Part shown: one piece after another, positions 24,805-45,319 of the stretch
How the letters are laid out: each line of letters begins with the position of its first letter
How positions within the stretch are numbered: position 1 is the first letter of the stretch
Assembly: GCA_963659315.1 (NCBI GenBank)
Contig: CAVKUD010000001.1
Coordinates: 2,769 to 66,768, forward strand
Direction: 5' to 3'
DNA: 64,000 nucleotides
Source: Senegalimassilia sp.
GTDB lineage: Bacteria; Bacillota; Clostridia; Lachnospirales; Lachnospiraceae
Made by a program: the position numbers and the translations under genes
Notes under the pieces: generated by a model
The model's input: the letters and a program-made list of their open reading frames with translations, nothing else
Databases searched by the model: none
Told to the model about the DNA's origin: nothing

Positions 24805-24807
24805 TAT

Positions 24808-26353: not shown

Positions 26354-26485
26354 AGGCAAAAATTGTTGATAGTACTAAAAAGTCAGATTGCGAGTGAGAA
26401 TGCTCAATACAAATTAGTAATTACAATAATATTGAAAAAAGTAATTATTTTTGAGATAATGATATTCGGAAAGGTTGGTAATTTT

Positions 26486-26677
26486 ATGAAAAGAAAAGAA
26501 GTAATACCTAACCACCATCAAATGACAGAGTTCTTAAGAGGTCAAGCATCAAGAATATTTGATGAAGTGGCAAAAAATGACGAGGTTGTTTTGGTAAATA
26601 AAAATAGTAAACCGCAGAATATCATTATCTCTTATGAAAGATATTGTCGTCTTAAGGAAAAAGGTGCGGATATTTAG
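26486..26677 (+). CDS. Phd/YefM antitoxin-like protein (no cognate toxin adjacent)
   Basis: MTEFLRGQASRIFDEV...VLVNKNSKPQNIIISYERY pattern; promoter TTGAAA-N17-GATAAT at 26432-26460. Confidence 0.7.
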   Translation: MKRKEVIPNHHQMTEFLRGQASRIFDEVAKNDEVVLVNKNSKPQNIIISYERYCRLKEKGADI

Positions 26678-26693
26678 GAGGAATAATTGGACA

Positions 26694-28736: not shown

Positions 28737-29947
28737 TGATGTGGGAAAATTTTGAACTTCAAAAAATTACTACAGTTTCTTCACCGAAGAAAAGATTCAA
28801 TGCTAATACATTGACAATAAACTCTCATCCTAAAGATGGATATCCTTATGTTGTTCGAACCGCATTGAATAACGGTATTAGAGGATACATAAAAGAGGAT
28901 GAAAACTACTTGAATGCTGGTAATACGTATTCATTTGGACAAGATACAGCAACAGTTTTTTGGCAGCCTAATCCATATTTTACTGGTGATAAAATAAAAG
29001 TATTAACACCCACCCATAAATTAACTAATGAAATGGCATTGTTTATATTAATAGCAATAAGAAAAGCATTTGCATTGTTTTCATGGGGGACAGATTCATT
29101 TAATGAGGAAATTATCAAGACAATGAAAATTACCTTGCCTATCAAAAGTGAAGGTAATACTGCAATAATAGATGATACACGTTATTATCATGAAAAAGGT
29201 TTTATGCCAGATTTCGAGTATATGCATAAGTACATAGAGGATATTCAAAAAAAGCAATTCCTTGATCTTGAAAAATATTTGACAGAGCTGAAAATCAATG
29301 ATGTGAAGCTAAACAAAAAGGACAAAAAAATTCTGGCTCAGAAAACAGTAGATAAAGAATTTATTATGCATGATTTGTTTGAAAAGTTAAAAGCTCCATA
29401 TAAGGGCAAAGGGAGAAAACAAGACAATGTAAGCAAAGAAAAAAACATGGAATTTTCATTGCCATTAATCAACTGTAAAGATGGAAACAATGGTGTCATG
29501 TATTATGGAAGAAGAGAAGATTTTACTGTCCATAATAATGTATTATCCATTATATACAATGGACCACCTACAGAAGGACAGACATATTATCAAGAAGAGA
29601 TTGGTGTATATACAGATGCATATATCGTTGGATTGATAAATGATGTTCCTTTGGATAGAGAACTAGGTCTATATTTAACAACAGCGGTTAATAAATCTAT
29701 TCACAATCTCAAGAAGAAGAAGTATTCTAGAGGAAATAAAGCAACGTGGGATAATAAAGTTGAGAATGATAAAATTATACTTCCAATCAAAGTTGAAGCA
29801 GATGGAACTCCGATAATTGATTCTTCAAAGAGTTTTCATAAAAAAGGATATGTACCAGATTGGGATTATATGAGAAATTATATTGTTGCCATAGAAAAAG
29901 AGGTTGTGGCAGAAGCCGTTGATTTTAAAAATGAGATGGTAAGGTAA
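28736..29947 (+). CDS. R-M specificity (beta/S) subunit with two TRDs
   Basis: Overlaps the alpha stop; two repeated halves ending PDFEYM / PDWDYM; NNG motifs. Confidence 0.8.
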   Translation: MMWENFELQKITTVSSPKKRFNANTLTINSHPKDGYPYVVRTALNNGIRGYIKEDENYLNAGNTYSFGQDTATVFWQPNPYFTGDKIKVLTPTHKLTNEMALFILIAIRKAFALFSWGTDSFNEEIIKTMKITLPIKSEGNTAIIDDTRYYHEKGFMPDFEYMHKYIEDIQKKQFLDLEKYLTELKINDVKLNKKDKKILAQKTVDKEFIMHDLFEKLKAPYKGKGRKQDNVSKEKNMEFSLPLINCKDGNNGVMYYGRREDFTVHNNVLSIIYNGPPTEGQTYYQEEIGVYTDAYIVGLINDVPLDRELGLYLTTAVNKSIHNLKKKKYSRGNKATWDNKVENDKIILPIKVEADGTPIIDSSKSFHKKGYVPDWDYMRNYIVAIEKEVVAEAVDFKNEMVR

Positions 29948-30337
29948 TAAATATTTATAGTTTCAAAACACTTTAGATTGAAAAAGTCTAAGGTGCTATG
30001 ATTTTAGGGAAAACCAAGTATTTTTTAAGAGGAAAGAGTATTGTAATTTGAAATTTTTCGAGATACATAATTTATTTAGATGATGATAATGATTAGATTA
30101 AAGGGGTGCTGATTTACGGTCATAATGTCAAGGAACAAGTGTTAAAGAGTACATTTGAAAAGTTTGTAAATTATATAATTCGATATTCATATGAGTCCGA
30201 ATGGTGGGATTATCTGCTGTTCGGGCTTTTATTTATGTTATTGAATTTTGGTGAAGCGTGGCAGATAAGCAAAATTGACCCGTATATATTACTTTAGATG
30301 GCGGAAACCATCTAATAATATGAAAGGGGATTGTGCT

Positions 30338-30826
30338 ATGGCTGAGACAATTCTGAAAAAAATGGTAACGATTAATGGAGCTGAATATACAATTACTAGC
30401 GATGGAAAGGTATACGGAAAAGAAGGTAAGGAAATTTCTGTAAGACCTAATACATCTGGATATGCTTCTTTTACAGCGGGAAGAAAAGGAAAACGTACGA
30501 GAAAAGAGGTTCACAGATTGGTTGCTGTACTATTTGTTGATAATCCGAATCATTATGATGAAGTGGATCATAAAGATTCAGATAGAATGAATCCTAGAGC
30601 TGATAACCTAGAATGGGTAACCAGAGCTGAAAATATACGAAGAATATATGAGAGACGAGGAGATATCAATAAAAAGAGAAAATTAACCGAGGATATGGTT
30701 GTAGATTTAAGACGTAAATATAAAGCTGGAGTTTCAGTACCAGAATTAGTCAGAGAATATAAGCTGCCAAGAACTACTATAAGAAATGCAGTTAAAGGAA
30801 ATACATGGAAGAATGTACCTATGTGA
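30338..30826 (+). CDS. HNH endonuclease (HNH_3-like) with C-terminal HTH
   Basis: VHRLVA...EVDHKDSDRMNPRADNLEWVTRAEN. Confidence 0.88.
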   Translation: MAETILKKMVTINGAEYTITSDGKVYGKEGKEISVRPNTSGYASFTAGRKGKRTRKEVHRLVAVLFVDNPNHYDEVDHKDSDRMNPRADNLEWVTRAENIRRIYERRGDINKKRKLTEDMVVDLRRKYKAGVSVPELVREYKLPRTTIRNAVKGNTWKNVPM

Positions 30827-30836
30827 TGACAAGTAA

Positions 30837-31154
30837 TCAGAGAACCTTAGCAATTCGCAGTAATTGTTCTTTTTTGGAATCATCCAGTTTATCAACAGTG
30901 TTGAGCAGTTCTGTTTCAAAAGCAGTAGTAGGAGCTTTATATTCATTGCCGAGAATATAATCAACGGTAACATTCATAGCATTGCAGATAGAAACCAGAA
31001 GTGTTAAAGATACCTTGACTTTGTTCGTCTCGATATTGCTGATGTGGCTGACATTAACATCGGTTACTTTAGCAAGATATTCCTGTGTCAGTTGTCGGTC
31101 TGTACGGACTTCTTTAATTCGTTTTCCGATAAGGGCAAAATCCAAATTATCCAT
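30837..31154 (-). CDS. XRE-family repressor
   Basis: IGKRIKEVR...LTQEYLA...HISNIE; the only clear minus-strand protein gene in the element. Confidence 0.9.
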   Translation of the reverse strand: MDNLDFALIGKRIKEVRTDRQLTQEYLAKVTDVNVSHISNIETNKVKVSLTLLVSICNAMNVTVDYILGNEYKAPTTAFETELLNTVDKLDDSKKEQLLRIAKVL

Positions 31155-31221
31155 TGCACCATTCCTCCTTAAAGTGTTGTGAAAATTATAAAGAAATTAT
31201 AGTTACAGAGTAATAATCCAA

Positions 31222-31248
31222 TGCTATAATCTATATAGGTATAGATTA
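31222..31248 (+). promoter_or_regulatory. Extended -10 promoter overlapped by a palindromic operator
   Basis: TGcTATAAT (31222-31230) overlapping TAATCTATA-tagg-TATAGATTA (31227-31248) in the divergent intergenic gap. Confidence 0.55.
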
Positions 31249-31302
31249 ATATTATGATGAAAAATGCCGATAAGTATAATGAGCAAATAGAAGAAAGGAA
31301 TA

Positions 31303-32379
31303 ATGAACATGGCGTATTTTACACAAACAGATTCATTAGATGATTTGAGAAATCAATATAAAAGGTTGCTGACAAAATTTGATTATAAAGATCCTAAGAA
31401 TGCTAAGCTCTTAGCAGAGATTGATAAAGAATATAAGAAGCGCCAAACATATGCGAAGATGGCACCACTTAGAAAAGCGCTAGACGATGATGACAAGGCA
31501 AGAGTACAGGCAGAACGAGAGAGGGCTGAGTACAACGCAGAAATAAAAAGAAGAACACAAAGGCATTATACAAAAGAAGACTGTCAGAACTATTTGAATA
31601 TAGCTTGTAGAGAATTGAAAAATTACGCATATCTGAAAGTTAGATATTATATGAAATCAGCAGGTGGAGCATCTACATGTCGTAATGATTTAGATACTTT
31701 TAGAATGAATGGCAATAGAAAAACTTATATAAATTTAAGAACTCTTGGAAAACTAACTAATGATAGAGACTTATTAAAAGTAATGGAGGCTGGAAATGAT
31801 GTTGAAATAGCATTTGTAGCTTTAGCCGATAAAAATAATAAAGAACAGATATTGCAAAAATTAGAAGAAAAATTAGGTGCTGTATATGTTGCAGCCTATA
31901 AAGAAGCATGTGATAAATATATGGATGATGTAGACTACGCTAGGCTTGTAGCAAGGGAAAACAAGCAAAATAAAGCAGAAAAAATCACAAAACCAATGGA
32001 ATCAGCGTTAACTATGATAATTAGAGTAGTTGCTTCTATAGTATTGGGAACAATAGCATTTGGAGTTACCTTTGCCATTTTGGACATGTTTCTTACTTTT
32101 GTAAGTGATGCTAGTAATATCAAGCTTAGTGGCATTATCCTTTGGGGAATTGTAGCAATTGAAGTGATTGTAGCCGCTTTTGTTGCATTAGCTGTAATTA
32201 AAGTCATTAATAAGTTGATTATCGAAGATACTCGTCAAGAGGTGTCAGATAAAAAAGTATCATATAGCCGAGTGACAGAGGGTGAGAAATACGATGAGAT
32301 AAAGAAAAATGAAAATCTTTCTAAGAATACATCTGGTGTAATAAGGCTTATTGCTAGATTGTTTGGATTTCGTATTTAA
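31303..32379 (+). CDS. Membrane protein with degenerate J-domain-like N-terminus and two TM helices
   Basis: YF...SLDDLRNQYKRL...AEIDKEY resembles J-domain helices without HPD; two hydrophobic segments near the C-terminus. Confidence 0.55.
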   Translation: MNMAYFTQTDSLDDLRNQYKRLLTKFDYKDPKNAKLLAEIDKEYKKRQTYAKMAPLRKALDDDDKARVQAERERAEYNAEIKRRTQRHYTKEDCQNYLNIACRELKNYAYLKVRYYMKSAGGASTCRNDLDTFRMNGNRKTYINLRTLGKLTNDRDLLKVMEAGNDVEIAFVALADKNNKEQILQKLEEKLGAVYVAAYKEACDKYMDDVDYARLVARENKQNKAEKITKPMESALTMIIRVVASIVLGTIAFGVTFAILDMFLTFVSDASNIKLSGIILWGIVAIEVIVAAFVALAVIKVINKLIIEDTRQEVSDKKVSYSRVTEGEKYDEIKKNENLSKNTSGVIRLIARLFGFRI

Positions 32380-32412
32380 TTAAATAACATAAGAAAAGGC
32401 AGGTAATAGTAC

Positions 32413-32607
32413 ATGGGATTAATAGGATTTATAGTCATTATAGTTATTTTGGGAGTTCTGTTTGACGGAAAGTTAGGAACAACAATGGCGACTGGAGGGT
32501 TGCAGATATTGTTTGGTATATTTATTACGGCGGTTTGTTTTGCTATAAATCCAATTCTTGGGATAATTGTAGGAATTGTTTATTTTAAAGGATTATCAAA
32601 TCAGTAG
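32413..32607 (+). CDS. Small membrane protein
   Basis: 64 aa, almost entirely hydrophobic; RBS present. Confidence 0.7.
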   Translation: MGLIGFIVIIVILGVLFDGKLGTTMATGGLQILFGIFITAVCFAINPILGIIVGIVYFKGLSNQ

Positions 32608-32727
32608 CATAGTATTACATTTTCGCCAGTATAGGCAAAAAAATTATATATATTTTTGGAACTAAGCACGTATCAAACCTTAAAAGCAATTCTTAGTTCG
32701 GAACCCCACCCCTCTGTATATGGGTAT

Positions 32728-32762
32728 CAAAGACATCAGGAGAAATCTTGGTGTCTTTTTTA
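32728..32762 (+). terminator. Intrinsic terminator
   Basis: AAAGACATCAGGA-gaaa-TCTTGGTGTCTTTTTT. Confidence 0.75.
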
Positions 32763-32836
32763 TTTGACCTGAGCATGTTGTCGTTAAACTGCTCTATTAT
32801 TATGCCCTGATGTGGCAGGAAAGGAGGCACGTTACC

Positions 32837-33106
32837 ATGAAGGATTTGTTATCAAAAATCTATGACTATGTGATCAACTACGAGGCTGACAGTATAAAGC
32901 TGGGGAGTAAATTCGATGTAGAAGTTAAGAAAGCCATAGAGCCATTGAAAGAATCTATGACAGCAGAAGAGATGGAGCGTATTAAGGAAATCGTATATTC
33001 GACAGCTTATACCGCAGAAAAGAATGGATTTCATCTGGGAATCCGCACAGCTCTCACTATGTTTGTGGAAGCAATGCAGTTACCGGATGACCCTGACAAG
33101 TCATAA
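32837..33106 (+). CDS. Hypothetical helical protein
   Basis: AGGAGG RBS; AEKNGFHLG motif of a kind common in small Clostridia MGE proteins. Confidence 0.7.
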   Translation: MKDLLSKIYDYVINYEADSIKLGSKFDVEVKKAIEPLKESMTAEEMERIKEIVYSTAYTAEKNGFHLGIRTALTMFVEAMQLPDDPDKS

Positions 33107-33139
33107 AACTGTCAAATATGAGGAAAGGAGGCTGATGTT

Positions 33140-33226
33140 ATGCGTAAGCCGAATATGGTTGATGTAATCATTGCAGAAATTATTGCGATTGTATTGGTAC
33201 TGATCGTGAAAATGACTGTGGCATAA
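33140..33226 (+). CDS. 28-aa hydrophobic microprotein MRKPNMVDVIIAEIIAIVLVLIVKMTVA
   Basis: AAAGGAGG RBS; single TM segment. Confidence 0.6.
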   Translation: MRKPNMVDVIIAEIIAIVLVLIVKMTVA

Positions 33227-33266
33227 CAACATCAATAATTACAACTGAATATGGAGGTATCACAAA

Positions 33267-33338
33267 ATGGATGCACTATTTATCCAAGCAGTCATTGTAC
33301 TTGTATTCTTGTACAGATGGCTTAAAGAAAACAAATAA
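33267..33338 (+). CDS. 23-aa hydrophobic microprotein MDALFIQAVIVLVFLYRWLKENK
   Basis: GGAGGT RBS; TM segment, Trp and charged tail. Confidence 0.6.
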   Translation: MDALFIQAVIVLVFLYRWLKENK

Positions 33339-33364
33339 TTTTTTACGAAAAGGAGATTCACACT

Positions 33365-34387
33365 ATGATGAACAACAATTTAAACAACAACGGAACTAAT
33401 AACAACAGCAACAATAATTCAAACAACGGAGGTAATTTTATCATGGCAAACAACACAATCAATTCATTACAGGTATTCACAGGCATTATCAAAGAGGCAT
33501 TTACATCTGTCTATCCAGATAACAAGGTCTTTGTTCGTGAGGTAAAGAAGAACAATGGTCTGGTTCTTACAGGTCTTACTATCTGTGAGCGTAATATCAA
33601 TATTGCACCAACTATCTACCTTGATGCATATTTTGCACAGTATAAGGACGGAAGAGCCATGACGGATATTATCAGGACTATTGATGAGTGCTACAAGGCA
33701 AATCGTGTCGGCAGTGATTTTGATATTGCAGGAATTATGGACTTTGAGAACGTAAAAGACAGGGTGTGCTTCAAGCTCATTAATAAGGACAGGAATGCCG
33801 AGATGCTTTCCGATATGCCTTATATAGAGTTCCTTGATTTAGCGGTCATCTTCTATGTGCTTGTATCAGAAGATGAAATGGGTACAGGCTCTATTACGAT
33901 ACATAACAGCCTGATGGAAGCATGGGGAACTGATAAGAAAGAGTTGTTAAAGCTTGCAATGCGTAATACCCAGAGGAGATTTACAGGTCATGTCTATAAC
34001 ATGATGAGCATAATTGAATCCATGATGGGAAGATATGCAGAGCTTGATAGCGAAGTAAGAAACTGCTTCTATGAGATGGAATCAGTATATGAGGATGATA
34101 TCTGCCCTATGTATGTAGCAACGAACAGCAAAAAGTTAAACGGAGCTTGTGTGATGCTTTATGATGGACTACTTCGTGATTTCGCCAGAAAGGTAGGCAA
34201 GGGCTTCTATATTATTCCAAGTTCCATCCATGAAGTTATCCTGATTCCTGATACACTGGATATGGATATCCGTTATATGAAAGCAATGGTTAAGGAAGTA
34301 AACGGAACGGAAGTTGCTCCTGATGAAGTATTATCCGACAATGTATACAGATACGATATTGATACAGACCGCATTGAAATGATGTAG
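33365..34387 (+). CDS. DUF5688-like protein with Asn-rich N-terminal extension
   Basis: VKKNNG, IAPTIYL, LDLAVIF, IIPSSIHEVILIP, LSDNVYRYD motifs; alternative start at 33443. Confidence 0.75.
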   Translation: MMNNNLNNNGTNNNSNNNSNNGGNFIMANNTINSLQVFTGIIKEAFTSVYPDNKVFVREVKKNNGLVLTGLTICERNINIAPTIYLDAYFAQYKDGRAMTDIIRTIDECYKANRVGSDFDIAGIMDFENVKDRVCFKLINKDRNAEMLSDMPYIEFLDLAVIFYVLVSEDEMGTGSITIHNSLMEAWGTDKKELLKLAMRNTQRRFTGHVYNMMSIIESMMGRYAELDSEVRNCFYEMESVYEDDICPMYVATNSKKLNGACVMLYDGLLRDFARKVGKGFYIIPSSIHEVILIPDTLDMDIRYMKAMVKEVNGTEVAPDEVLSDNVYRYDIDTDRIEMM

Positions 34388-34432
34388 GTCTTATTTTTTT
34401 TTGCCTATTTTTAAAAAACGGAGGATTTTAAT

Positions 34433-34708
34433 ATGTTTGATAAGAAAGAAATGAAGCTCATTAACTTTGAGAAAGCCAAGAAATATCTGATGAATGGAGT
34501 ACAGGTCTATATGGTCAATCTGGACGGAAGCCTTGTTGAAATTAATGAGGATACCGACTGGAAAAAGATTTTATTCCATAACCTGAAAGGTGGCAGCTAT
34601 GCCATATACAAGAAAAAATTTACTGGTATCGGTACATTTACCAAGGATATCCATATCGGTAAGTGGGATTTCAGCGTAAGCCACACTAAGAAGGGAGGTG
34701 ATGCCTAA
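34433..34708 (+). CDS. Hypothetical protein
   Basis: GGAGG RBS; within the co-oriented operon. Confidence 0.7.
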   Translation: MFDKKEMKLINFEKAKKYLMNGVQVYMVNLDGSLVEINEDTDWKKILFHNLKGGSYAIYKKKFTGIGTFTKDIHIGKWDFSVSHTKKGGDA

Positions 34709-34887
34709 TGTGCTACTTAGAAGGACAGTCATTAAGACCAGAACTGCCAGGGCATTGTACAGAGAATTGCAGTCTGTACATGTCGGTATGTGTTCCGATT
34801 GTAACAGATGGTCTATTAGATGGCTGTGAGTGCTCAGGAGATTCATATTGTGATGAGTGCCCATACTTTGAAGAGTGTGGGAAGTAG
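34708..34887 (+). CDS. 59-aa cysteine-rich microprotein (9 Cys)
   Basis: GGAGGTG RBS, TAATG stop/start coupling; MCYLEGQSLRPELPGHCTENCSLYMSVCVPIVTDGLLDGCECSGDSYCDECPYFEECGK. Confidence 0.7.
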   Translation: MCYLEGQSLRPELPGHCTENCSLYMSVCVPIVTDGLLDGCECSGDSYCDECPYFEECGK

Positions 34888-34899
34888 AAAGGAGATTCT

Positions 34900-35223
34900 A
34901 TGAAAGAAAAAATAATAAAACGCTTAAATGATGAACTGTATGCATATCGTAAATATCTTATTTCAGGAAGTATGACAACGGAACAGCTTTTTGAAGAAGC
35001 ATATGGAATTGCATTACGTCAGTTTATTGTAGAAGCGATAGAGCAAATGGCAGATGATAACCGATTGTCAGATGTTTTATGTGACTGGCTGGATAAAAAG
35101 GATGATGTACTCGATTATCTGTATTCATTATGGATGGATTGTGATACTTCTCTTATTCCAGAGCTTGCAGACATACTTTATAACGAGGTTACGCATGATC
35201 GGGAGGTACAGGAGAATGAGTAG
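34900..35223 (+). CDS. Hypothetical protein
   Basis: AAAGGAG RBS; LDYLYSLWMDCD segment; overlaps the next start. Confidence 0.7.
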   Translation: MKEKIIKRLNDELYAYRKYLISGSMTTEQLFEEAYGIALRQFIVEAIEQMADDNRLSDVLCDWLDKKDDVLDYLYSLWMDCDTSLIPELADILYNEVTHDREVQENE

Positions 35224-36103
35224 AAATCAGGATAAAGTAAAAACAGCCCTCAAAAGTATTGATGATAGTTTGGCGACTATCAATACCAACGAGGACTGGA
35301 TGAAATACCTTAAATTTCAATCCTTATTCTACAACTACTCATTTGGAAATGCAATCTTAATTTATGCACAGAGCGGTGGACAGGCTACCTATGTAAAAGG
35401 CTATAAGTCTTGGAACAAGCTTGGACGCTATGTGAAGAAAGGAGCTAAGGGGCTGGCAATACTTGCCCCTTGCTTCCGTAAGGTTGAGCAGTTCAAAGAA
35501 CCAGACAATAAAAATGAGTACCATGATGAGCAGGGAGAGAAAGAGGTCAAGCGTGTTATCAGCGGTTTTAAGGTGACCTATGTATTTGATATTGCAGATA
35601 CGGATGGTTCAGATGAATATATCCCAGTGCTGGTAAAAGGTCTTGCAGGTAATTCCGAAGAGGAAAAGAACATATACGATAATCTCTATCGTGTATTATC
35701 AAAAAAATTTGTGATACAGGATGTAACAGGAACAGCCAGCAAAGGCAGTTACAATCTGGAAACAAAGGTTATCAGCGTGCGTTCTGACCTTGAATACTTG
35801 CAGAGAATCAAGACATTACTGCATGAAACAGCTCATGCGTATGATTTTGCAATGAATCCTGATGATGATATCCCAAGAAACCGAAGGGAACTTATTGCAG
35901 AATCGGTAGCTTTTGTTGTCAGCATGAGACTGGGACTTGATACTAGCAGTTATTCCATGGGTTACATACAGTCATGGCTCAAGGATAAAGAGGAACTAAA
36001 GATTATAGCTGATACTGTACAGAAAGTATCATACAAGATTATTACTACATTGGCAGAGTCGGAAGGCTCTGCTTTTTCTGATTTAAGAGAAAGTGAGGAA
36101 TAG
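35216..36103 (+). CDS. ArdC-like ssDNA-binding / antirestriction protein with zincin domain
   Basis: YSFGNAILIYAQ, GYKSWNKLGRYVKKG, VFDIADT; TLLHETAH and ELIAESVAF. Confidence 0.8.
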   Translation: MSRNQDKVKTALKSIDDSLATINTNEDWMKYLKFQSLFYNYSFGNAILIYAQSGGQATYVKGYKSWNKLGRYVKKGAKGLAILAPCFRKVEQFKEPDNKNEYHDEQGEKEVKRVISGFKVTYVFDIADTDGSDEYIPVLVKGLAGNSEEEKNIYDNLYRVLSKKFVIQDVTGTASKGSYNLETKVISVRSDLEYLQRIKTLLHETAHAYDFAMNPDDDIPRNRRELIAESVAFVVSMRLGLDTSSYSMGYIQSWLKDKEELKIIADTVQKVSYKIITTLAESEGSAFSDLRESEE

Positions 36104-36106
36104 AGC

Positions 36107-37042
36107 ATGAATGCAAATATTTTAGTAGAGACAGACGGATTATCAAGGGAAGAGTGGCTTAGATACCGCAAACAGGGGATTGGTGGAAGTGATGTTGCCG
36201 CCATCCTTGGTATCAGCAAATGGAACAGTGCTATTTCCTTATGGCTCAATAAAACAAACCAGACAGAGGATGATACACAGGAAAATGAAGCTATGGAATG
36301 GGGAACCATCATGGAACCGGTCATCCGTAATCATTTTGCTAAGGTTACTGGTAAGACAGTGGTTGAAGTACATGCCATGTTACAGCATCCAGAATATCCA
36401 TTTATGCTTGCTGATGTTGATGGTCTTACAGAAGATGAGGACGGAAATCCTGCTATTCTTGAAATAAAGACAGCCAGCGAATATAAGCGTTCTGAATGGG
36501 AAGAAGGTGTTCCGACTTATTATCAGACACAGGTACAGCATTATCTTACAGTCACAGGAGTTAAAAAAGCATATGTTGCTGTCCTTATTGGTGGCAATGC
36601 GTTCCGTATCTATGAAGTGGATGCGGATGAAGAGATACAGCAGATGCTTATTGCTGTAGAAAAAGAGTTCTGGAATAAGGTTAAGAACATGATTAGACCT
36701 GAAATGGATGGATCTGATGCTGCTAAGAATCTGTTAGATAACATTTATCATGGCGGGGTTGAGGATGAAATTATACTGCCTGATGATGCTGTTGAATGGG
36801 TGGATGCATACTTTGAAGCATCTGTAGAAGAGGATAATGCAAAGGCAAAGAAGCAGGAAGCAGCTAACCATATCAAGGAGTTCATGGGGGATTATGACAA
36901 GGCAAAGTGTTATGACCATTCTATTTCATGGAAAAGAGTAACCAGTGAAAGGCTTGATACAAAGGCATTAAAAGAGAATGAACCAGAGCTTTACCAGAAA
37001 TATGTTAAGAGCAGTACAAGCAGAAGATTCACATTGAGATAA
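36107..37042 (+). CDS. YqaJ-like (lambda exonuclease family) recombination nuclease
   Basis: WLRYRKQGIGGSD, MLADVDG, LEIKT, YQTQVQHYL. Confidence 0.92.
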   Translation: MNANILVETDGLSREEWLRYRKQGIGGSDVAAILGISKWNSAISLWLNKTNQTEDDTQENEAMEWGTIMEPVIRNHFAKVTGKTVVEVHAMLQHPEYPFMLADVDGLTEDEDGNPAILEIKTASEYKRSEWEEGVPTYYQTQVQHYLTVTGVKKAYVAVLIGGNAFRIYEVDADEEIQQMLIAVEKEFWNKVKNMIRPEMDGSDAAKNLLDNIYHGGVEDEIILPDDAVEWVDAYFEASVEEDNAKAKKQEAANHIKEFMGDYDKAKCYDHSISWKRVTSERLDTKALKENEPELYQKYVKSSTSRRFTLR

Positions 37043-37066
37043 GCACAGAAAGGCAGGATAAACATT

Positions 37067-37924
37067 ATGAGTAAACAGATAGATTTAAAAGCACTACTAG
37101 AGAGCAGAATGGAGAATATAGAGCCGACAGAAACCTCTAAAATGGCGATAGAACGTGCGGAAATGAATGTACCCCACAATCTTATGTTTGATGCAGAAAG
37201 CACAGAATTTAAGCCAGAAACAAAGCCAGTGACAGCATCAGGAGCAAGAGGATTAACAGTAGAAGAGGCAAAGACATTTGATGATGAAATGAACCGATTC
37301 ATTGATACTGTCCTTATTGCTGGTGTCGATTATGGTGTGATACCGCATTGTAACAAACCTACCTTATTAAAATCAGGAGCAGAAAAAATCCTTAATTATC
37401 TTGGACTGATTGCAAGAACGGAAATCAGTAATCGGGTTGAGGATTACAATGTCGGGTTCTTTTCTTATGAGGCAAAGGTCTACCTGATTGATTACAACGG
37501 CGTTGTCAAAGGTGAGGGTATCGGCATCACGAATACCAGAGAAGGTAAATATGCAAAGAGTAATGGTTATGCGGTTCAGAATACAGTCCTTAAAATGGCA
37601 AAGAAGCGTGCGTTGGTGGATGCAGCATTAAATGTCGGTAATCTGTCAGCAAGGTTTACGCAGGATGTAGAGGATATGAATATTGAGCCTGACAGTACAG
37701 GTGGTAAGAATCCTGATGAATTAAAGCAGGGAAGTAAGCCAAAAGCGGAAAAGTCTGTCACACAGAAGCAGATAAAATATCTGGAAACACTTATGAGCCA
37801 GCATAATACATCTGCGGAAGCCATGAACAAATACTGTAAATCAAACTTTGGTGTAGATGATTATAAGAAGATTACAGGTGTTCAGGCATCTACGCTGATA
37901 GAGAAATTTAAAGCTGTTGAATAA
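37067..37924 (+). CDS. Probable single-strand annealing protein (Rad52-like fold inferred)
   Basis: Follows YqaJ; DYGVIP...KPTLLKSGAEKI, NTVLKMAKKRALVDA and C-terminal TQKQIKY motif. Confidence 0.55.
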   Translation: MSKQIDLKALLESRMENIEPTETSKMAIERAEMNVPHNLMFDAESTEFKPETKPVTASGARGLTVEEAKTFDDEMNRFIDTVLIAGVDYGVIPHCNKPTLLKSGAEKILNYLGLIARTEISNRVEDYNVGFFSYEAKVYLIDYNGVVKGEGIGITNTREGKYAKSNGYAVQNTVLKMAKKRALVDAALNVGNLSARFTQDVEDMNIEPDSTGGKNPDELKQGSKPKAEKSVTQKQIKYLETLMSQHNTSAEAMNKYCKSNFGVDDYKKITGVQASTLIEKFKAVE

Positions 37925-38052
37925 TCTGATGGCATAATTTTGTGCAGCGAAATATAGGAGAACTCAAAATTGAGCTGTCCTAAATAATTTCGTATCGGAA
38001 AAGTAGTTTTATTTCACATTCGCTCCTCTATTTTGAGGAATGAAATCATACT

Positions 38053-38084
38053 GGGGATGCAGGATATCTGTGTCCCCCTTTTTT
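38053..38084 (+). terminator. Intrinsic terminator-like hairpin
   Basis: GGGGATGCAG-loop-CTGTGTCCCC followed by T tract. Confidence 0.6.
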
Positions 38085-38101
38085 GAAAGGAGCAAACGAC
38101 A

Positions 38102-38575
38102 ATGGATATAAAAACATATGATTTGATTATTGATACCAAGACCAAGCATACAGCATTACAGGTAAAGGACAGCTTTGCCTATGCTGTTGATAATTTTACA
38201 GAGCCTAAGGCGATATATGACTTAATGACAGATGGATTCCATATGGATAAAAAAGCAGATGAATATGTCTATATGGGGGCATTTAATAACAGGATGAAGC
38301 TTCTTGGAATGTTTGAGATAAGTCATGGTTTGGGAGATTCAAGCCTTATAGATGCAAGAGGCGTGTATATGAGAGCATTACAGATAGGAGCGAGCAATAT
38401 AGTGGTAATACATAATCATCCATCAGGTATTCCGCTTCCATCAAGGGATGACTTTCGTGTGTGCCGTAGAATCAGAGAAGCAGGGGAGCTGCTTGGAATC
38501 CCATTGTCTGATTTTATAGTGATAGGCTGTGATGATTTCGTCAGCTTTCAGGAAAAAGACCTGATGAATCTTTAA
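38102..38575 (+). CDS. RadC-like JAB/MPN domain protein (copy 2)
   Basis: DEYVYM...HNHPSG.PLPSRDD...DFIVIG. Confidence 0.9.
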   Translation: MDIKTYDLIIDTKTKHTALQVKDSFAYAVDNFTEPKAIYDLMTDGFHMDKKADEYVYMGAFNNRMKLLGMFEISHGLGDSSLIDARGVYMRALQIGASNIVVIHNHPSGIPLPSRDDFRVCRRIREAGELLGIPLSDFIVIGCDDFVSFQEKDLMNL

Positions 38576-38928
38576 ATAGTACATTCAGGTATTGTTTAGT
38601 TAATAATTGCATTATAATATATAGCATGTAGAATGTACTGGATGAGAGCACCTACTTTTTAATGATGATTTCCTTATTTTTGTTGTTGAATTGTAATATG
38701 GTGTGACAGAAGAATAATTCTTTCTTATTTCCAGGGGACAAAAACTCTGATTTTTATGTAATTATGTAGAGAAAAAGGCAAGAAGATCAGAGTGTAAATA
38801 ATATACCTGTAAATTTGGATGATTGCTACACATGCTATAATTTATGTAGAGAGACATACATACCGATATATACTATAAGCATTTATATGCTTGCTACTTA
38901 TAATACCTACTGAAAGTGAGATACTGAT

Positions 38929-40347
38929 ATGGATTACTTTGATGATAATAAATTGTGCTCTGTTAATGAGTTCTATGACAATGTAAAAAAGTTAAAAAGA
39001 GAGTTGGGAAATAAAGCCACTCTCACAGATAAAGAAGTTGAAGATAAAAAGGCATTATTATTAAGTGCTCAATTTGTTTCTAAAAAATATATTGAATTGG
39101 CACAAGAGTCCCCAAAGGAATATCCAGAAATTTTACCAGAGGATATAATAGGGGAAATGGATTATATAGATGCAGTATATGATTATATGAAGCAACATGG
39201 AGATGGAGGAGATGTATTAAATAGCTATCCTGTTGTTTCATTGGCTATTATGGTTAAAAATACACATTCGGAAATAAGAAATGCAGGAATAGATAATTGT
39301 GTTACTGAGAGAGTTGTGCATGCAGTAGTTCCAGCTATCGAGGCTGTTACATTAAAGGCAGTTTATAATGCACCACAATTCAATGTATCTACATCTGGTA
39401 TAATCAATGCTCAAAAAGTTTTGAATAGATATCCAGAAATCGTAAAGCTTATGACAGATGAGGCGGTAAGAACAGTTTTTACAAATAAAGCTGAAAGGAA
39501 TCAGTGGTCATCATTTACTATATATAAAGGAAATGCATCTGATAATGCATCGTTACTGTTATCTCAAAGCGTTACTGCTGACCCGAATAATAAGGTTTTA
39601 ATTGAAAGTGATTTTTCAATATATGATTGGGCGGTCATGGAAGCGGTAGCGACACTATATGCGTATGCGGAAGAAAATAGTAAGTTAGACAATGGTGCTG
39701 TGGCTATAGATATTCAGAGTATTGATAAGATACTAAAACGTGATGTTTTAATAAGAATGTCGCAAGAAACCAAAAAGAATATCCTGACATCGGATATTGT
39801 AAGAAGTTTAGTAAAATTAATGGGAAATCATGTGGAGATAGTTGATCCGGCAGGAAATCATGCTGGAGATTTGATAGATGGAGAATTAGCATTTGTATCT
39901 AATAAATTATGCTTAATAGTAAAATCTAAACCTGTTCTTTTTAAATATACAGAAAGTAATGGTAGAAATCATTTGGAGAGCATAAAAATAGATGAACTTA
40001 AACTTGATCTGAAAAAAATAAATGCATCATATTCTACAGAAACTGTTGCCATATATAGATTTTTACTAGGGAGATTAAGAGAAATATTTGGTTCATACAA
40101 GATGGACAGTAAACATATGACTCCGAAGCCAAATTATACGAATAGTGTATCGCTTGAAAGTATTATCAGTGCTGTATATCCAGAAGGTTTAGGAAAATTC
40201 AAGGATGCAGCATCAAAGAAGCGATATGTTTTAAATAATACAGAAAAAATCTGTAATGCAATGGAAAACAAAGGAATATTTTTTAAGAAGTGTGAGTTAG
40301 GTAGAAACATGAGAGAAGATTATATATTCATATTTCATAGAAATTAA
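38929..40347 (+). CDS. Hypothetical protein, candidate replication initiator
   Basis: Sits immediately before iteron-like repeats and a DnaB-like helicase; function inferred from position only. Confidence 0.45.
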   Translation: MDYFDDNKLCSVNEFYDNVKKLKRELGNKATLTDKEVEDKKALLLSAQFVSKKYIELAQESPKEYPEILPEDIIGEMDYIDAVYDYMKQHGDGGDVLNSYPVVSLAIMVKNTHSEIRNAGIDNCVTERVVHAVVPAIEAVTLKAVYNAPQFNVSTSGIINAQKVLNRYPEIVKLMTDEAVRTVFTNKAERNQWSSFTIYKGNASDNASLLLSQSVTADPNNKVLIESDFSIYDWAVMEAVATLYAYAEENSKLDNGAVAIDIQSIDKILKRDVLIRMSQETKKNILTSDIVRSLVKLMGNHVEIVDPAGNHAGDLIDGELAFVSNKLCLIVKSKPVLFKYTESNGRNHLESIKIDELKLDLKKINASYSTETVAIYRFLLGRLREIFGSYKMDSKHMTPKPNYTNSVSLESIISAVYPEGLGKFKDAASKKRYVLNNTEKICNAMENKGIFFKKCELGRNMREDYIFIFHRN

Positions 40348-40373
40348 CTGGAAGAAATCGCCTAGCTTAGTTT

Positions 40374-40436
40374 ATTAAAAGTGTAAGGAATAGCTTTTAT
40401 GTTGTTAGATACAGCATTAAAGGTGTAAGGAATAGC
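40374..40436 (+). repeat. Iteron-like 21-bp direct repeats (putative origin)
   Basis: ATTAAA(A/G)GTGTAAGGAATAGC at 40374 and 40416, 42 bp apart, with a degenerate 21-mer between. Confidence 0.7.
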
Positions 40437-40603
40437 ATTGATAAAGTCTCGAAACCGTTGAAAATAGGGCGGTTCGGGGCTTTTTCTTTTTCTATAGACT
40501 TATAGATTAATACCGAGCGATTTCTGGCAATACCAGAAAATCGCATTTGGGTATTAAATTATACCATCAGCTGATACAAAAACAGAAAGGAGTTGATGAA
40601 TCT

Positions 40604-41638
40604 ATGATTACTCAATCAAATGCTCCACCTCAACAAACAGGAGCAGTAACTATTCCTAATGCGAGTGGTGCAATCTATAAGAATAACGTAAGCTTCTATT
40701 TAAAGAAAAATCTTCAACATGAGATTAGTTCATTTATAGCAAGTGGTCAGGCAAAGACAGGATATTCAAATCTGGATGCAGTTATTGGAAAGTTATATCC
40801 TGGATTGTATGTTCTTGGAGCAGGAAGTTCACTTGGGAAGACGACCTTTTTATTGCAAATGGCTGACCAGCTTATAGCAGATTGTGAACCTGTTCTTTAT
40901 TTCACAATGGAACAGTCACAGTTAGAGCTTGTAACAAAGACATTAAGTAGAAGAGCTGCACTTAAATGTAAAACAAATCCTAAAATGGCTAAGACTGCTA
41001 TCCAGATTCGCAGAGGTGATGTTACTCAGGAAGTAAAGGATGCATTTCAGGATTATGTTGCTGATGCAGATATTTTTACGATTGTTCAGGGAGATTTTTC
41101 TACAGATATGACAGAAGTGGAAAGAATTGTAGATGATTATGTAAAGGTAACAGGAAAAGTACCTATTGTTATGGTTGATTATCTTCAGATCGTACAAGAG
41201 GATAGCCAGATGACTGATAAGGCGAAGATTGATTCTATTACAAAGCGTTTGAAAATTCTTCAGCGTAAGCATAATGCAGTTGTGATGGTCATTTCTTCAA
41301 TAAATAGAGCGAATTATATGTTGCCGATTGACTTTGAATCCTTTAAGGAATCAGGCTCAATTGAATATTCAGCGGACGTGGTTTGGGGGCTACAGCTTCA
41401 AATTATAAATGACCAAGCATTTACACAGGCTAAGGGTGTGTCTCAGAAAAGAAGAATGATTGCAATGGCTAAAGCTGCATCACCTAGAAAGGTAGAGCTG
41501 GTCTGCTTAAAGAACAGATATGGTATTGCTTCATATAATTGTGGCTTTTTATATTATCCACAGTTTGACTTATTTACACCAGACCCACAATTTAAAGCAT
41601 CGGCACCAATTTGTCCGACACCACAAATTATTATTTAA
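40604..41638 (+). CDS. DnaB-like (SF4) helicase, C-terminal domain type
   Basis: TGYSNLD, GAGSSLGKTT, MVDYLQ, SSINR, FKESGSIEYSAD, LKNRYG. Confidence 0.9.
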   Translation: MITQSNAPPQQTGAVTIPNASGAIYKNNVSFYLKKNLQHEISSFIASGQAKTGYSNLDAVIGKLYPGLYVLGAGSSLGKTTFLLQMADQLIADCEPVLYFTMEQSQLELVTKTLSRRAALKCKTNPKMAKTAIQIRRGDVTQEVKDAFQDYVADADIFTIVQGDFSTDMTEVERIVDDYVKVTGKVPIVMVDYLQIVQEDSQMTDKAKIDSITKRLKILQRKHNAVVMVISSINRANYMLPIDFESFKESGSIEYSADVVWGLQLQIINDQAFTQAKGVSQKRRMIAMAKAASPRKVELVCLKNRYGIASYNCGFLYYPQFDLFTPDPQFKASAPICPTPQIII

Positions 41639-41651
41639 TAGGAGGTCATCT

Positions 41652-41978
41652 ATGACAGAATTAGAAAAAAAACATAAATTAATGCAGAAATGCAGAATAG
41701 TTAAGCCAGATCAGACTGGTGTATGTAGATTTATAGAAATTCAGATGCAAACGTTTGAACAGGATGCATCTGGGAAATGGAATCGTACAGGAATGGCTAT
41801 TGAAAAGGGCTTGCAGTACGAAAATAAGGTTAAGCTTATTGATGGAAGAATAGTATATCTTAATAAGCCTGGAACAAAAATTGTTACAGAATATCAGAGA
41901 GTACCAGAATGGGCAACTCATGAATTGGAAGATATTTATGTTGATTATGACATGTTTGATGTTCCTGTACCATTTTAA
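41652..41978 (+). CDS. Hypothetical protein
   Basis: AGGAGG RBS before ATG 41652. Confidence 0.65.
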   Translation: MTELEKKHKLMQKCRIVKPDQTGVCRFIEIQMQTFEQDASGKWNRTGMAIEKGLQYENKVKLIDGRIVYLNKPGTKIVTEYQRVPEWATHELEDIYVDYDMFDVPVPF

Positions 41979-42035
41979 GGTCTATTAAGAATGACTGCAA
42001 ATTTTAACTATATTCAGAAGGAGAAAAAAAGTGTG

Positions 42036-42305
42036 ATGAAAGATGATAATTTGAATATGCAGAACTTATCGGATGATGAACTCATAATATTTAATGAGTG
42101 GGTACTTAATGTTGCTGCTCCTACAGTATGTTCATTATCGGAGAAAAATAAAGACAAGGTTCAATACAATATTGATATGTCAGAACAACAGATGCAGGAA
42201 ATCTATGAATGGATATTATGCGGATATGACAAAGTAGCCATGATCTTAGGAAAAACTGCATTTGGCGAATTATGCAGAAAAATGTCAATAGCATTAGATT
42301 TATGA
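42036..42305 (+). CDS. Hypothetical protein
   Basis: AAGGAG RBS; ORF track. Confidence 0.55.
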   Translation: MKDDNLNMQNLSDDELIIFNEWVLNVAAPTVCSLSEKNKDKVQYNIDMSEQQMQEIYEWILCGYDKVAMILGKTAFGELCRKMSIALDL

Positions 42306-42372
42306 TAAGGGTATTTCTATATTTCAGGGTGTTCTTAGGAGCACCCTAATTTATTAAGTGGAGGATGTAAGA

Positions 42373-42561
42373 ATGGATAATAGTAACATAGTATACAAGA
42401 TTGTTGAGGATAAAGTTAATATGGACGGAATACATACATTTGATGGACTTGAGATGGACATTCAGGCTGCGTATTTGAATATGCTTCATAGCAAAGGACT
42501 GATACCAGATAATGTTCATTCTATTGCATTAAACAAAATTACAAAAGGAGTGGTTAGATGA
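42373..42561 (+). CDS. Small protein preceding the recombinase genes (SHOCT-like tail)
   Basis: GGAGG RBS; LNMLHSKGLIP segment; overlaps the next start. Confidence 0.55.
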   Translation: MDNSNIVYKIVEDKVNMDGIHTFDGLEMDIQAAYLNMLHSKGLIPDNVHSIALNKITKGVVR

Positions 42562-43226
42562 AAGAACACAAAGCTGCAATCTATCATTTTACGGATGGGG
42601 GAAATATCAGACCTATTGTTTACCAGAAAGAACTTGATCGAATAAAACAGTTTGCGGCAGATATCGGATATTCAGATGCAGAGGTATATCTGGATAAATC
42701 TCTTAAAAAGAAAGAACAAGTACAGTTACAGAATTTATTACAGGATATAAGCAATTACAATGCCTTGATTATGAAAGACTTCTATCATCTAAGAAAGAAT
42801 ACAGGAGCATTTATGGATGACCTTATTACTCTTAGTAATAGAGGGGTAAATATCTATACCATAGAAGATGGCAGTTTTCAGTTAAGTACTGCACCATTTG
42901 AGCAACCATTAAGAATTGCTTTGTATTACTGTGGTTTGGAAATTGTCGGACGTTCAATAGAGTTACAGTTTGAGATTATGAATTATTTTGTGAGAACCTG
43001 CACTAACTGGAAAATAATTGATGAATATGCTGATACATCTGGCAACAAGAAAGATGGAAACCAAAAACAGTTACAAGAGCTTATTAAAAACCATGATAAG
43101 TATGATTTGATTCTTGTGCAGTCGTTTAATGATATCCATTGGAGAACAGCAAAATTTTGTAAAGTAAGACACCAGATACAAAGAGATATCTACAGTATGC
43201 ATGAAGAAATGTATTTGAAGTATTAA
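42558..43226 (+). CDS. Protein of two tandem degenerate serine-recombinase catalytic domains
   Basis: AAIYHFTD...VYLD and IALYYCG...SIELQ...NWKIIDEYADTSG...KYDLILVQS; the YxRVS catalytic motif is missing in both. Confidence 0.6.
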   Translation: MKEHKAAIYHFTDGGNIRPIVYQKELDRIKQFAADIGYSDAEVYLDKSLKKKEQVQLQNLLQDISNYNALIMKDFYHLRKNTGAFMDDLITLSNRGVNIYTIEDGSFQLSTAPFEQPLRIALYYCGLEIVGRSIELQFEIMNYFVRTCTNWKIIDEYADTSGNKKDGNQKQLQELIKNHDKYDLILVQSFNDIHWRTAKFCKVRHQIQRDIYSMHEEMYLKY

Positions 43227-43239
43227 CAAGGAGGAAACT

Positions 43240-44967
43240 ATGAAGAATAAAGAGATTAATGAAATTTATTTATGCGTTGAATACGCTCGTGTTTCTACAG
43301 CTAATGAAGGTCAGAAAGAAAGCTGCGAGAACCAGATAACATTGTGTAATGAATATGTTAAGAAGCATCCAGAATTACAGGTTGTAGGTACATATGTTGA
43401 TGATGCTTTAACTGGCGGTAATGATATTCGCCCAGAATATCAGAAGTTGCTTAATAGAATACAGCAGGGAGACATTCGCTACATTATAGCCAAGAGTACA
43501 AATCGTCTATGTCGTTCTACAGAGGTTGATGGTCAGTTACAAAAGATTTGTAGAGAATATGATGTGATGATTATTTTTGTTGATTCAAATTATATATTTA
43601 ATCCGTTTGATGGAGATGCGGTTACTATGCACTCTATTCAAATGATATTTGACCAGCAGTATATTTATACGCAGTCAAAGAATGGTACTATCGCCCATAG
43701 ACAGAAGTGTGAGAAGAAAATACTGGATGCTACAGATGTAAGATATGGTTATGAATGGGATAAGGAAAATAAGCGTATTGTAGTGAAAGAGAGTGAGGCA
43801 CAGTATGTTAGAAAAATGTTTGATTGGTATGTATTCGGAGGTCTTGGGGTAACAGAGATAGCACGTAAATTAGCAGAACTGGGAGTATATGGTCAAAAGA
43901 GCGGTAAGATTTTAACTGCAAATACTATATCAAGCAGATTAAGTGATGCCTCTTATAAAGGAACTTTCTATATAAATAAGAAAGGCAGCAAATTAAATAT
44001 TGGTGTTGGTGCTAAGAAAATCCGTTTTGATCGTCCGAAAGAAGAGTGGATAGCAGTACCTGGACCAGCAATTATATCAGAAGAACTTTTTGATTTAGCA
44101 CAAAGGGTTAGAGAAGAACGCTGCCATATTTATGATAAGCCTAGTAAGCAATCATCACAGGCACGTTTCAGAGGTACGCATTTATTTTCAGGAAAAGTAT
44201 TTTGTGGTGATTGTGGTACGCAGTTTCATTTTAGATATGCTGATAGAGCTAAGACGATTGGAGAGTATAAGGATTATTTCAGCAAGAAAAAGACATCATT
44301 AGATGCGGTTTGCAATAATAAAAAATACAATCGCATTAGAGAGGAAACATTGATTGAATTATGTAAGTACTCAATAAATGTATTTCTGAAAAATCATGAA
44401 AGCTGTATTGATAATATTGTTGATGTTCTTCGTGAGGCTGGCAAGGAAGCTATGAATGACAATACGCAGATAAAAGCTTATCAGAGAAAGTTGAAAAAGC
44501 TTGATATAGAGCTGAAAAAGAATTTAGAGGCTTGGCGAGATGCTACTGATTCTGATATGAAAGAGGATTTCTTACAGATGTATAAGGCTAATAAGGCTGA
44601 AAAGAATAGTATTGAACAGTATCTGGATGAGATTAAACAACAGCAGTCATCACTTGAAGATATGGAGAAAGAATTACAGGTACTGAAAAATAAGATTGAA
44701 GAGATAAAACAGATAAAGGAATTTGATAAATCTGTGGTAGATAATTTTATAGAAAGAATAATAATAGCCGCAGATGGCAAGGTAACCATTGTATTAAAAT
44801 TTGGAACTACCTTTGATGCCATAATGCAGAATAAAATGCTCTTCACTTATGACGGAAAGGGTGATGAAGATATACCATTTTTAAATTTAAAGTTCATTAC
44901 AGATATATATGAGTTCAGAAATCATATCTTATATTATCAATCGTTAAGATGTTCGGACAGGACATGA
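43240..44967 (+). CDS. Large serine recombinase (integrase)
   Basis: YARVST catalytic Ser, NRLCRS, YGY, PAIISEELF, FSGKVFCGDCG zinc ribbon, coiled coil; stop codon formed at the attR junction. Confidence 0.95.
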   Translation: MKNKEINEIYLCVEYARVSTANEGQKESCENQITLCNEYVKKHPELQVVGTYVDDALTGGNDIRPEYQKLLNRIQQGDIRYIIAKSTNRLCRSTEVDGQLQKICREYDVMIIFVDSNYIFNPFDGDAVTMHSIQMIFDQQYIYTQSKNGTIAHRQKCEKKILDATDVRYGYEWDKENKRIVVKESEAQYVRKMFDWYVFGGLGVTEIARKLAELGVYGQKSGKILTANTISSRLSDASYKGTFYINKKGSKLNIGVGAKKIRFDRPKEEWIAVPGPAIISEELFDLAQRVREERCHIYDKPSKQSSQARFRGTHLFSGKVFCGDCGTQFHFRYADRAKTIGEYKDYFSKKKTSLDAVCNNKKYNRIREETLIELCKYSINVFLKNHESCIDNIVDVLREAGKEAMNDNTQIKAYQRKLKKLDIELKKNLEAWRDATDSDMKEDFLQMYKANKAEKNSIEQYLDEIKQQQSSLEDMEKELQVLKNKIEEIKQIKEFDKSVVDNFIERIIIAADGKVTIVLKFGTTFDAIMQNKMLFTYDGKGDEDIPFLNLKFITDIYEFRNHILYYQSLRCSDRT

Positions 44968-44980
44968 TGGTTCACTGTCA
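44945..44980 (+). other. attR (element arm TAAGATGTTCGGAC, CA crossover at 44963-44964, host arm)
   Basis: Inverted match to the attL arm; host cpaF frame resumes CAT GAT GGT TCA CTG TCA ACA GGT CAT GCA AAT. Confidence 0.85.
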
Positions 44981-45319
44981 ACAGGTCATGCAAATTCGTG
45001 CAGGGATATGCTGTCCAGAATGGAAACCATGGTACTGATGGGACAGGAGCTGCCTCTCAGTGCTATAAGAAGTCAGATTGCATCTGGAATAAATATTATC
45101 ATTCAGCTGGGCAGACTGAGGGATAAATCCCGCAGGGTGCTTGAGATAGCGGAACTGGATGGAATTGTAGATGGCGAGATTGTACTAAACACGCTATACA
45201 AATTTGAAGAGATATCGGAGAAGGATGGCAGAGTTATAGGAGAGCTTGTACAAAAGGGTAAGTTAAAATCCCGGACAAAGCTTGAGGCTGCCGGCATGAG
45301 GGATGTAAATGGACTATAG
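44963..45319 (+). pseudogene. cpaF: CpaF/TadA pilus ATPase, 3' part
   Basis: HDGSLSTGHANSCRDMLSRMETM...QLGRLRDKSRRVLEI completes the ATPase begun at 21790. Confidence 0.95.

Follow-up and report, generated by a model that had tools for sequence, protein, structure and literature searches.

What happens to an integrase whose recombination site lies inside its own coding sequence? We asked this of a 64,000-nucleotide stretch of DNA (hereafter the window), in which positions 22659..44964 form a 22,306-bp (22.3-kb) mobile island that splits a cpaF/tadA pilus gene at a CA crossover. The GC content of the island is 34.8%, vs. 42-43% in its flanks. Its last gene encodes a large serine integrase and runs straight through one of the two attachment sites (Table 1).

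Table 1. Features of the island, its target gene and its attachment sites (window coordinates)
Feature	Position	Strand	Description	Evidence
cpaF/tadA 5' half	21790..22659	+	290 aa, C-terminal ...NTGH	Pfam T2SSE, E 1e-49
attL	22640..22677	.	host arm, CA crossover 22657-22658, element arm P' from 22659	arm symmetry about CA; same junction in 12 metagenomic loci
Stored integrase C-terminal module	22659..22820	+	53 codons + TAG 22818-22820	dN/dS about 0.1, natural fusions, AlphaFold hairpin
Partner gene	42558..43226	+	222 aa, two resolvase-like modules	Pfam Resolvase, two stretches
Large serine integrase, integrated short form	43240..44967	+	575 aa, C-terminal SLRCSDRT	Pfam, alignments, model, structure matches
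attR	44944..44980	.	element arm P (codes RCSDRT), CA crossover 44963-44964, TGA-supplying host arm	
cpaF/tadA 3' half	44966..45319	+	117 aa, N-terminal DGSLSTGHAN...	

The island and the integrase gene that crosses its own att site

The interrupted gene belongs to a tad-like operon with a prepilin peptidase, a TadZ-like gene and two T2SSF genes (TadB/TadC-like), which follow the cpaF 3' half. The best NCBIfam match of the 5' half is a TadA-family ATPase, below the cut-off for what is half a gene. The halves join as ...NTGH/DGSLSTGHAN..., a junction that is intact in same-genus genomes, and excision, as reconstructed from the sequence, restores cpaF exactly. In 3/3 same-genus genomes the insertion was absent and the cpaF frames, of 397-417 aa, were uninterrupted.

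Only CAT is common to attL and attR (22657-59 and 44963-65). The element arms form an inverted repeat centered on CA with a 12/14 match (14/19), and moving the center by a single base destroys the symmetry, confirming an earlier claim about the arms. The crossover is CA and not CAT, as near-identical integrases elsewhere continue CA/CGACGG (runs X5 and X8; protein P0004, in which this continuation appears as a 9-residue read-through). Integrases 99% identical to that of the window run on into a different cpaF in X5 and X8, and in X3 the cpaF entered is a diverged one, a result that fixes the crossover at CA and indicates movement between hosts. The window's left end also sits in the cpaF of another host in a human-gut assembly (L023), with one synonymous change over codons 7-46, and near-identical DNA is present in pig-gut runs. 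Named homologues come from Lachnospiraceae, Agathobacter, Lachnospira, and Eubacterium. Accordingly, a lachnospire of the gut is the probable host. Searches for the family integrase gave no match in phage records, one match at 25% in plasmids, and one viral contig without attL.

After the attR element arm, the integrase ORF stops at a TGA (44965-44967) made from the T of a host His codon and the GA of the next host codon. Across the island, the integrase frame from 22659 is open for 53 codons, and stops end the two remaining frames after 32 and 0; by composition alone, 53 open codons arose in 1.1% of 20,000 shuffles. The coordinates, attR read-through, host-made stop, and extension from 575 to 628 aa proposed in a prior sequence-only reading of this locus all check. 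The protein carries the features of a large serine recombinase: a YxRxS motif, a recombinase domain with zinc ribbon and coiled coil, and a 2-bp crossover with imperfect inverted arms. Its catalytic domain matches Pfam Resolvase at 69.8 bits, with Y15, R17, and S19 kept in at least 90% of 76 aligned rows, and its recombinase domain matches PF07508 at 65.5 bits. The zinc-ribbon match (PF13408, E 5e-5) falls under the cut-off, and cysteines C322, C325, and C358 are invariant in the 76-row alignment. Coiled-coil helices lie at 409-488 in the model, and the best structure matches are serine integrases. The canonical domains end near residue 522, after which a variable linker leads to the crossover; the cut therefore removes one whole module. 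What replaces that module is set by host codons, either an immediate stop or a junk read-through of 2-83 residues.

We also considered whether the tail could be expressed separately at attL. The window holds such an ORF (22608-22820) with a host-derived ATG, but in-frame starts are not conserved, occurring at 5/15 loci in differing positions and at 1/3 in the inverted clade described below. The tail is therefore likely made only from joined junctions.

Selection on the tail and its distribution in the family

To sample the detached tail, we scanned metagenomes with no more than the cpaF arm and 16 bases from the start of the P' arm. The scan returned 14 loci, 12 attL and two chance matches outside cpaF (L026 and L027) that were removed before counting. 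In all 12 metagenomic attL the integrase frame stays open, for 50-62 codons or for 47 to the contig end. The 8/8 inner ends from seven other genomes, in two gene orientations, were also open, and the two sets together span 41-62 codons; two attL ends in G206 are open for 52 and 53 codons and one in G884 for 52. The selection test used 10 distinct attL ends over codons 7-46, beyond the arm used in the search. Pooled pS was 0.66 and pN 0.145 (dN/dS 0.10, stops in 0/10), values whose significance is overstated since the sequences are kin but whose direction is plain. Four disjoint pairs gave 55/99 synonymous vs. 29/381 non-synonymous differences (dN/dS 0.08), and variation occurred at 34/40 third positions vs. 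18 and 13 at the other two. The other five frames had stops in 3-10 of the 10 sequences and ratios of 0.36-1.6, and the alignment is gap-free, with indels only from about codon 47 on. Identity to P0189 is 27/47 residues in the tail, vs. 17/53 in the linker and 329/513 in the core. We also considered selection on the read-through in the cpaF frame (32-45 codons) and rejected it, with stops in 4/10 and a ratio of 1.07. The tail is a protein module under purifying selection, and in the integrase frame only. The expectation of a conserved open frame across attP was thus borne out, both by the 12/12 open metagenomic ends and by a dN/dS of about 0.1.

Joined forms of the gene are found in nature. 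Among the 165 full-length window-clade proteins listed, which are matches and not a census, 86 end at the junction and 65 continue into host sequence for 2-83 residues; the attL-side tail is present in 10, being cut off after 9 residues in one of them, and the remaining 4 fit none of these groups. Four of the long forms are 625 aa in length and 99% identical to the window integrase; an Agathobacter MAG protein is another, and relatives with 82%, 80%, and about 60% identity also carry the tail. As second-rank support, a contig in run X9 leads from integrase sequence into the P' arm, reaching 28 letters past the crossover where the bridging rule asks for 31; the same run has a second joined junction with the arm of another integrase. 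An assembly artifact was also considered; repeat collapse seems unlikely, as the ends share just 3 bases. We did not find the attP junction in the assembly that contains the window, which is 86.7% complete. These findings of a conserved extension and of long forms in assemblies support the proposal that two DNA states encode two integrase isoforms. The further suggestion from the sequence-only reading, that these isoforms set directionality or stability, is plausible.

Either excised circles or tandem accretion could produce joined junctions; tandem accretion is described for integrative elements in the relevant passages of PMC5704250. One tail (49-50/50 identical) occurs on three integrases that are 99%, 82%, and 80% like the window's, and three tail alleles occur with a 99%-identical integrase. 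These shared tails and multiple alleles point to tail swapping and are compatible with either a circle or a tandem source. The proteins involved (P0001, P0147, P0162, and P0003, with window 22659-22817) are in effect hybrid integrases. The truncated form makes up 151 of the 165 window-clade proteins listed. Mining integrases from integrated genomes would collect this form, and activity screens may consequently underrate such enzymes.

The family is discrete, comprising about 45 near-full-length clusters above 300 bits in a profile search of 1.84 billion representatives. By eye, many members end in cpaF read-through, in the same orientation in two phases as well as inverted. In the inverted clade, which is about 32% identical and in the other phase, elements with both ends were found in G005, G034, G314, G793, and G802; 5/5 of their inner ends are open for 41-49 codons in the integrase frame, with a two-strand pattern. 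Third-position bias in this clade is mild (7/5/10, 9/6/13, and 12/10/15), and the probability of each such frame remaining open by chance is 2-13%. In a third arrangement (phase +1) the tail was seen in P0319 only, P0291 failing the profile test (369/500). The split layout persists across clades ~32% identical, two orientations, and three phases. Of 10 family integrases in other genomes, 7 show the split at cpaF together with a far end that is open; that of G341 has no split, G866 combines a long-tailed integrase with an intact cpaF, and the G401 integrase (70% identical) ends in non-cpaF sequence, its inner end not being found. G742 encodes a distant LSR that is not at cpaF.

Two further arrangements were observed at cpaF. 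In G802 (C1, about 826,900-873,700; L045, L074, L078), cpaF is apparently cut twice, by a family element at NTGH and by a second insertion, ~27 kb long, that follows ...DMLQA a few codons upstream. G206 (L014, L017, L006) holds two cpaF 5' halves, each with attL and an open tail, and one attR was found, reflecting either two elements or bin mixing.

G341, the sole member shown unsplit by genomic context, served as a control. Its 610-aa integrase has the two-strand pattern at its end, the attR is located 2.4 kb downstream, and the attL frame is closed at 12 codons. The same family contains a 13-member all-long clade, known from proteins and placed by a quick tree with a weak root. A profile built from these 14 tails (G341 plus the 13-member clade) was matched better than shuffles by 10/10 same-orientation extensions (0-4/500) and by 0/14 host read-through tails. 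Results for the inverted-clade ends were uneven (5, 11, 27, 137, and 301 of 500 shuffles). Scores were low, at 7-14 bits, with profile-profile probabilities across clades of 0.3-14%, and common ancestry of all the tails is likely but not proven. Since a long-clade relative keeps a similar tail while its attL frame is closed, the evidence supports the long form as the complete enzyme, which integration truncates.

What the tail may do

AlphaFold2 applied to the natural 625-aa long form P0001, which matches the window integrase at 571/575 residues of their common part, gave canonical domains to about residue 522, followed by a low-confidence linker and a predicted hairpin at 584-595/612-622 (pLDDT about 50-67), so that the hairpin is a low-confidence prediction in the window's own protein. 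In P0413, a relative with a short linker, the model gives a helix and a long hairpin (545-558/561-573, pLDDT 81-86), the hairpin following DNA-binding domain 2 (DBD2) by ~25 residues. Solved SPbeta, Bxb1, phiC31, and LI integrases align to the P0413 model only up to residue 520-527, and the short form therefore keeps all the parts of a textbook integrase. The tail has no Pfam match and no solved-structure match by sequence; whole-model fold searches stop short of it, which is no evidence for a new fold. The tail is predicted to be a terminal beta-hairpin outside all canonical domains; the short form keeps every canonical domain and loses one family-specific module.

Immediately upstream of the integrase lies a possible partner. 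Both resolvase-like modules of the 222-aa protein are without the Arg and Ser of YxRxS, having YHFTD and YYCGL in their place; the motif columns were compared in 66 homologues. The protein is likely an inactive regulator, in a position like that of DsiA, and is a candidate RDF or dominant-negative partner of the integrase. Resolvase-like partner genes were found upstream of family integrases. The partner has 108 homologues, with invariant YHxT and Y..C motifs replacing YxRxS, and the resolvase-like genes upstream of the integrases in G341 and L037 are longer (348-359 aa).

We favor, with about even confidence, a reading in which the joining site within the integrase gene causes insertion into cpaF to remove the conserved tail, likely leaving a damped enzyme that keeps the island stable. 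Insertion would strip the conserved 50-residue tail, whose predicted hairpin likely packs on DBD2. The truncated integrase would then be damped, holding the inserted island stably in place, and the excised circle, or the upstream member of a tandem array, would make the complete enzyme for efficient integration, like Mx8 IntP/IntX. That the hairpin packs on DBD2 and that the integrated form is weaker could, in our judgment, go either way. The Mx8 analogy suggests the weaker integrated form, as does the relative in which the tail persists in both states. The extra C-terminal strands modeled on the DBD2 of SCCmec recombinases (PMC12286644) are a further precedent for this reading. Since elements evidently continue to leave and to arrive in new hosts, the short form would not be dead, unless long forms act in trans.

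The main, though less probable, alternative is a directionality switch, in which the hairpin acts as an internal plug for the RDF site on DBD2. In this reading the long form would ignore the RDF and integrate, and the short form would bind it (the candidate being the 222-aa partner) and excise. According to the structural sections of PMC12286644, RDFs bind the junction of DBD2 and the coiled coil, and modeled SCCmec recombinases have extra C-terminal strands able to block that site; most RDFs add a beta strand to the DBD2 sheet (PMC12286644 and, in its corresponding passages, PMC11722253). The P0413 hairpin lies ~25 residues past DBD2, and the logic of a plug matches the DNA states. The extreme C terminus of SprA is reportedly presented as a toggle in the title of one paper. 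However, the G341 integrase retains its tail whether integrated or free, a resolvase-like gene also lies upstream of it, and a strict plug would strand this element. Extended to the whole family, the same idea is tentative: these pilus-gene integrases might store directionality control as a detachable hairpin across attP. Recombination would then add or remove strands on the RDF-binding face of DBD2, the DNA state would write the direction of the next reaction, and the tails would swap as modules, a scheme that we regard as rather unlikely.

It is unlikely that the truncation is simply tolerated damage, with the tail needed by the complete enzyme and its loss a by-product of an att site in a loose linker, under no selected control. 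This would fit a short-form end that the host sets, as in the 86 junction stops and 65 read-throughs of 2-83 residues among the 165 proteins listed, and also the existence of the 13-member all-long clade in the same family. Yet the layout persists across clades even though the site can shift downstream, as in G341.

We consider it very unlikely that the island is a host-domesticated ON/OFF switch of the Tad pilus, in which regulated excision restores cpaF. Exact restoration of cpaF on excision and the occurrence of joined P-P' junctions are in line with such a switch. However, 99%-identical integrases and near-identical left ends (L023) lie in the cpaF of other hosts, the insertion is absent from 3/3 same-genus genomes, and the geometry of the inverted clade relative to the operon is reversed. 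The cargo is also of the selfish-island type, and the same module occurs on a relaxase-bearing element in G005. Coupling to pilus ON/OFF, which the sequence-only reading had raised, is therefore unsupported, given near-identical elements in other hosts and intact cpaF in 3/3 same-genus genomes, and it adds little to the interpretation.

Att sites are known to remove a degradation tag from mycobacteriophage repressors. The least probable reading, that the tail or its loss mainly alters protease sensitivity, draws on the C-terminal swap as the usual route of tag gain or loss and on an unpaired short-form linker that is low-confidence in the model, but conservation centers on two internal amphipathic strands, the last residues vary (KSNSSI, RKII, RQEEY), and short-form ends are heterogeneous.

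Island cargo and comparison with known systems

The cargo comprises two RadC genes, an HTH gene with an M78 peptidase, a resolvase, an N6-methylase with an S subunit, HNH, ArdC, YqaJ, and a DnaB-like helicase; no relaxase or resistance families were found among the island ORFs scanned with Pfam. The RadC/JAB genes lie at 22824-23357 and 38102-38575, and the first starts 3 bases past the tail stop, so that it would directly follow the integrase on a joined form. At 26634-29947, the N6-methylase (700 aa, weak MAD2 match) and type I S-like subunit adjoin a Phd-like antitoxin and the HNH gene, and this cluster is likely defense cargo. A 472-aa ORF of no known family, followed by the DnaB-like helicase (38929-41638), is a possible replication module, which could raise circle copy number. 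An 11/12 sigma-70-like promoter precedes the HTH and M78-peptidase pair (23415-24331), which we take to resemble ImmR/ImmA-type damage-inducible control. Promoter and terminator scans around the integrase were at chance level. Elsewhere, the inverted-clade module lies on a 14-kb element (L035, G005:C16:39500-55500) with relaxase-like and MobC-like genes, identified by eye, plus a cytosine methylase and an endonuclease, a cargo unlike that of the window.

T2SSE-domain genes are enriched LSR targets (15/1069 vs. 2/908) in the supplement of PMC10083194; in searches of its main text and supplement, CpaF, pilus, and the RCSDR motif had no match. Neither a cpaF-targeting family nor selection on such a tail is described in the literature searched, which left most subscription papers and bioRxiv supplements outside reach. 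The principle of an att site overlapping its integrase gene is already in print for Mx8, the rumA integrases, and DsiB, and the cpaF family and the evidence of selection were not found there. The nearest precedents are these three systems and not the mycobacteriophage repressors cited by the sequence-only reading.

One close layout is that of the Dehalococcoides ssrA islands (McMurdie 2011, PMC3146451). As described in the sections of that paper on DsiB and DsiA, the 3' end of the large serine recombinase DsiB always overlaps the att site, the gene adjoins a small resolvase-like gene, and DsiB may, its authors suggest, work fully only when on the circle or next to an adjacent island that carries the 3' fragment. 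Compared by layout, the window shares the overlapping 3' end and the small resolvase-like neighbor (42558-43226 here). The target differs, ssrA vs. cpaF/tadA, and DsiB C-termini are divergent, with no conserved module shown in those sections. In the single serine integrases with which streptococcal ICEs target rumA (Ambroset 2016), attR likewise falls within the integrase gene; the excised form differs in length and C terminus, and a functional difference is proposed in the part of PMC4701971 that treats them. There, however, 3' parts are exchanged reciprocally with rumA, whereas here cpaF is cut mid-gene and the lost part of the integrase is under purifying selection.

Two tyrosine systems offer looser parallels. 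In Myxococcus phage Mx8 IntP/IntX, attP lies in the integrase gene and 112 residues are replaced by 13 (passages of PMC4701971 and PMC6070905), the integrated, truncated form being less active (PMC4701971). IntP is a phage tyrosine integrase of unrelated fold, whereas the window enzyme has serine recombinase domains. The SSV-type suicidal integrases of archaea (Badel 2020, PMC7253208) are also split by their own site and form hybrid enzymes from halves of different origin, much as one tail here occurs on integrases 99%, 82%, and 80% like the window's. Those tyrosine recombinases are split into two inactive pseudogenes, whereas the short form here keeps all canonical domains. Domesticated gene-interrupting elements of the skin and SPbeta type are fixed in the host lineage, with regulated excision; the island is absent from 3/3 same-genus genomes and has near-identical copies in other hosts.

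The structural comparison is with SCCmec CcrB/CcrC (Shin 2025). In the modeling sections of PMC12286644, these recombinases have extra beta strands after DBD2 and a partner recombinase gene, comparable to the predicted hairpin and the partner gene here, but the Ccr strands are permanent. Against NCBIfam CcrA/B/C, the window integrase scores 57-59 bits vs. cut-offs of 700-900, and the matches end before the tail. The discussions of DsiB and the rumA integrases (PMC3146451, PMC4701971) guessed that att-overlapping serine integrases differ between free and inserted states, and PMC12286644, where it treats these strands, raises the question of whether RDF dependence hinges on C-terminal strands on DBD2. 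With natural isoform pairs that differ by one selected 50-residue module, the cpaF family offers an unusually clean direct test of both questions.
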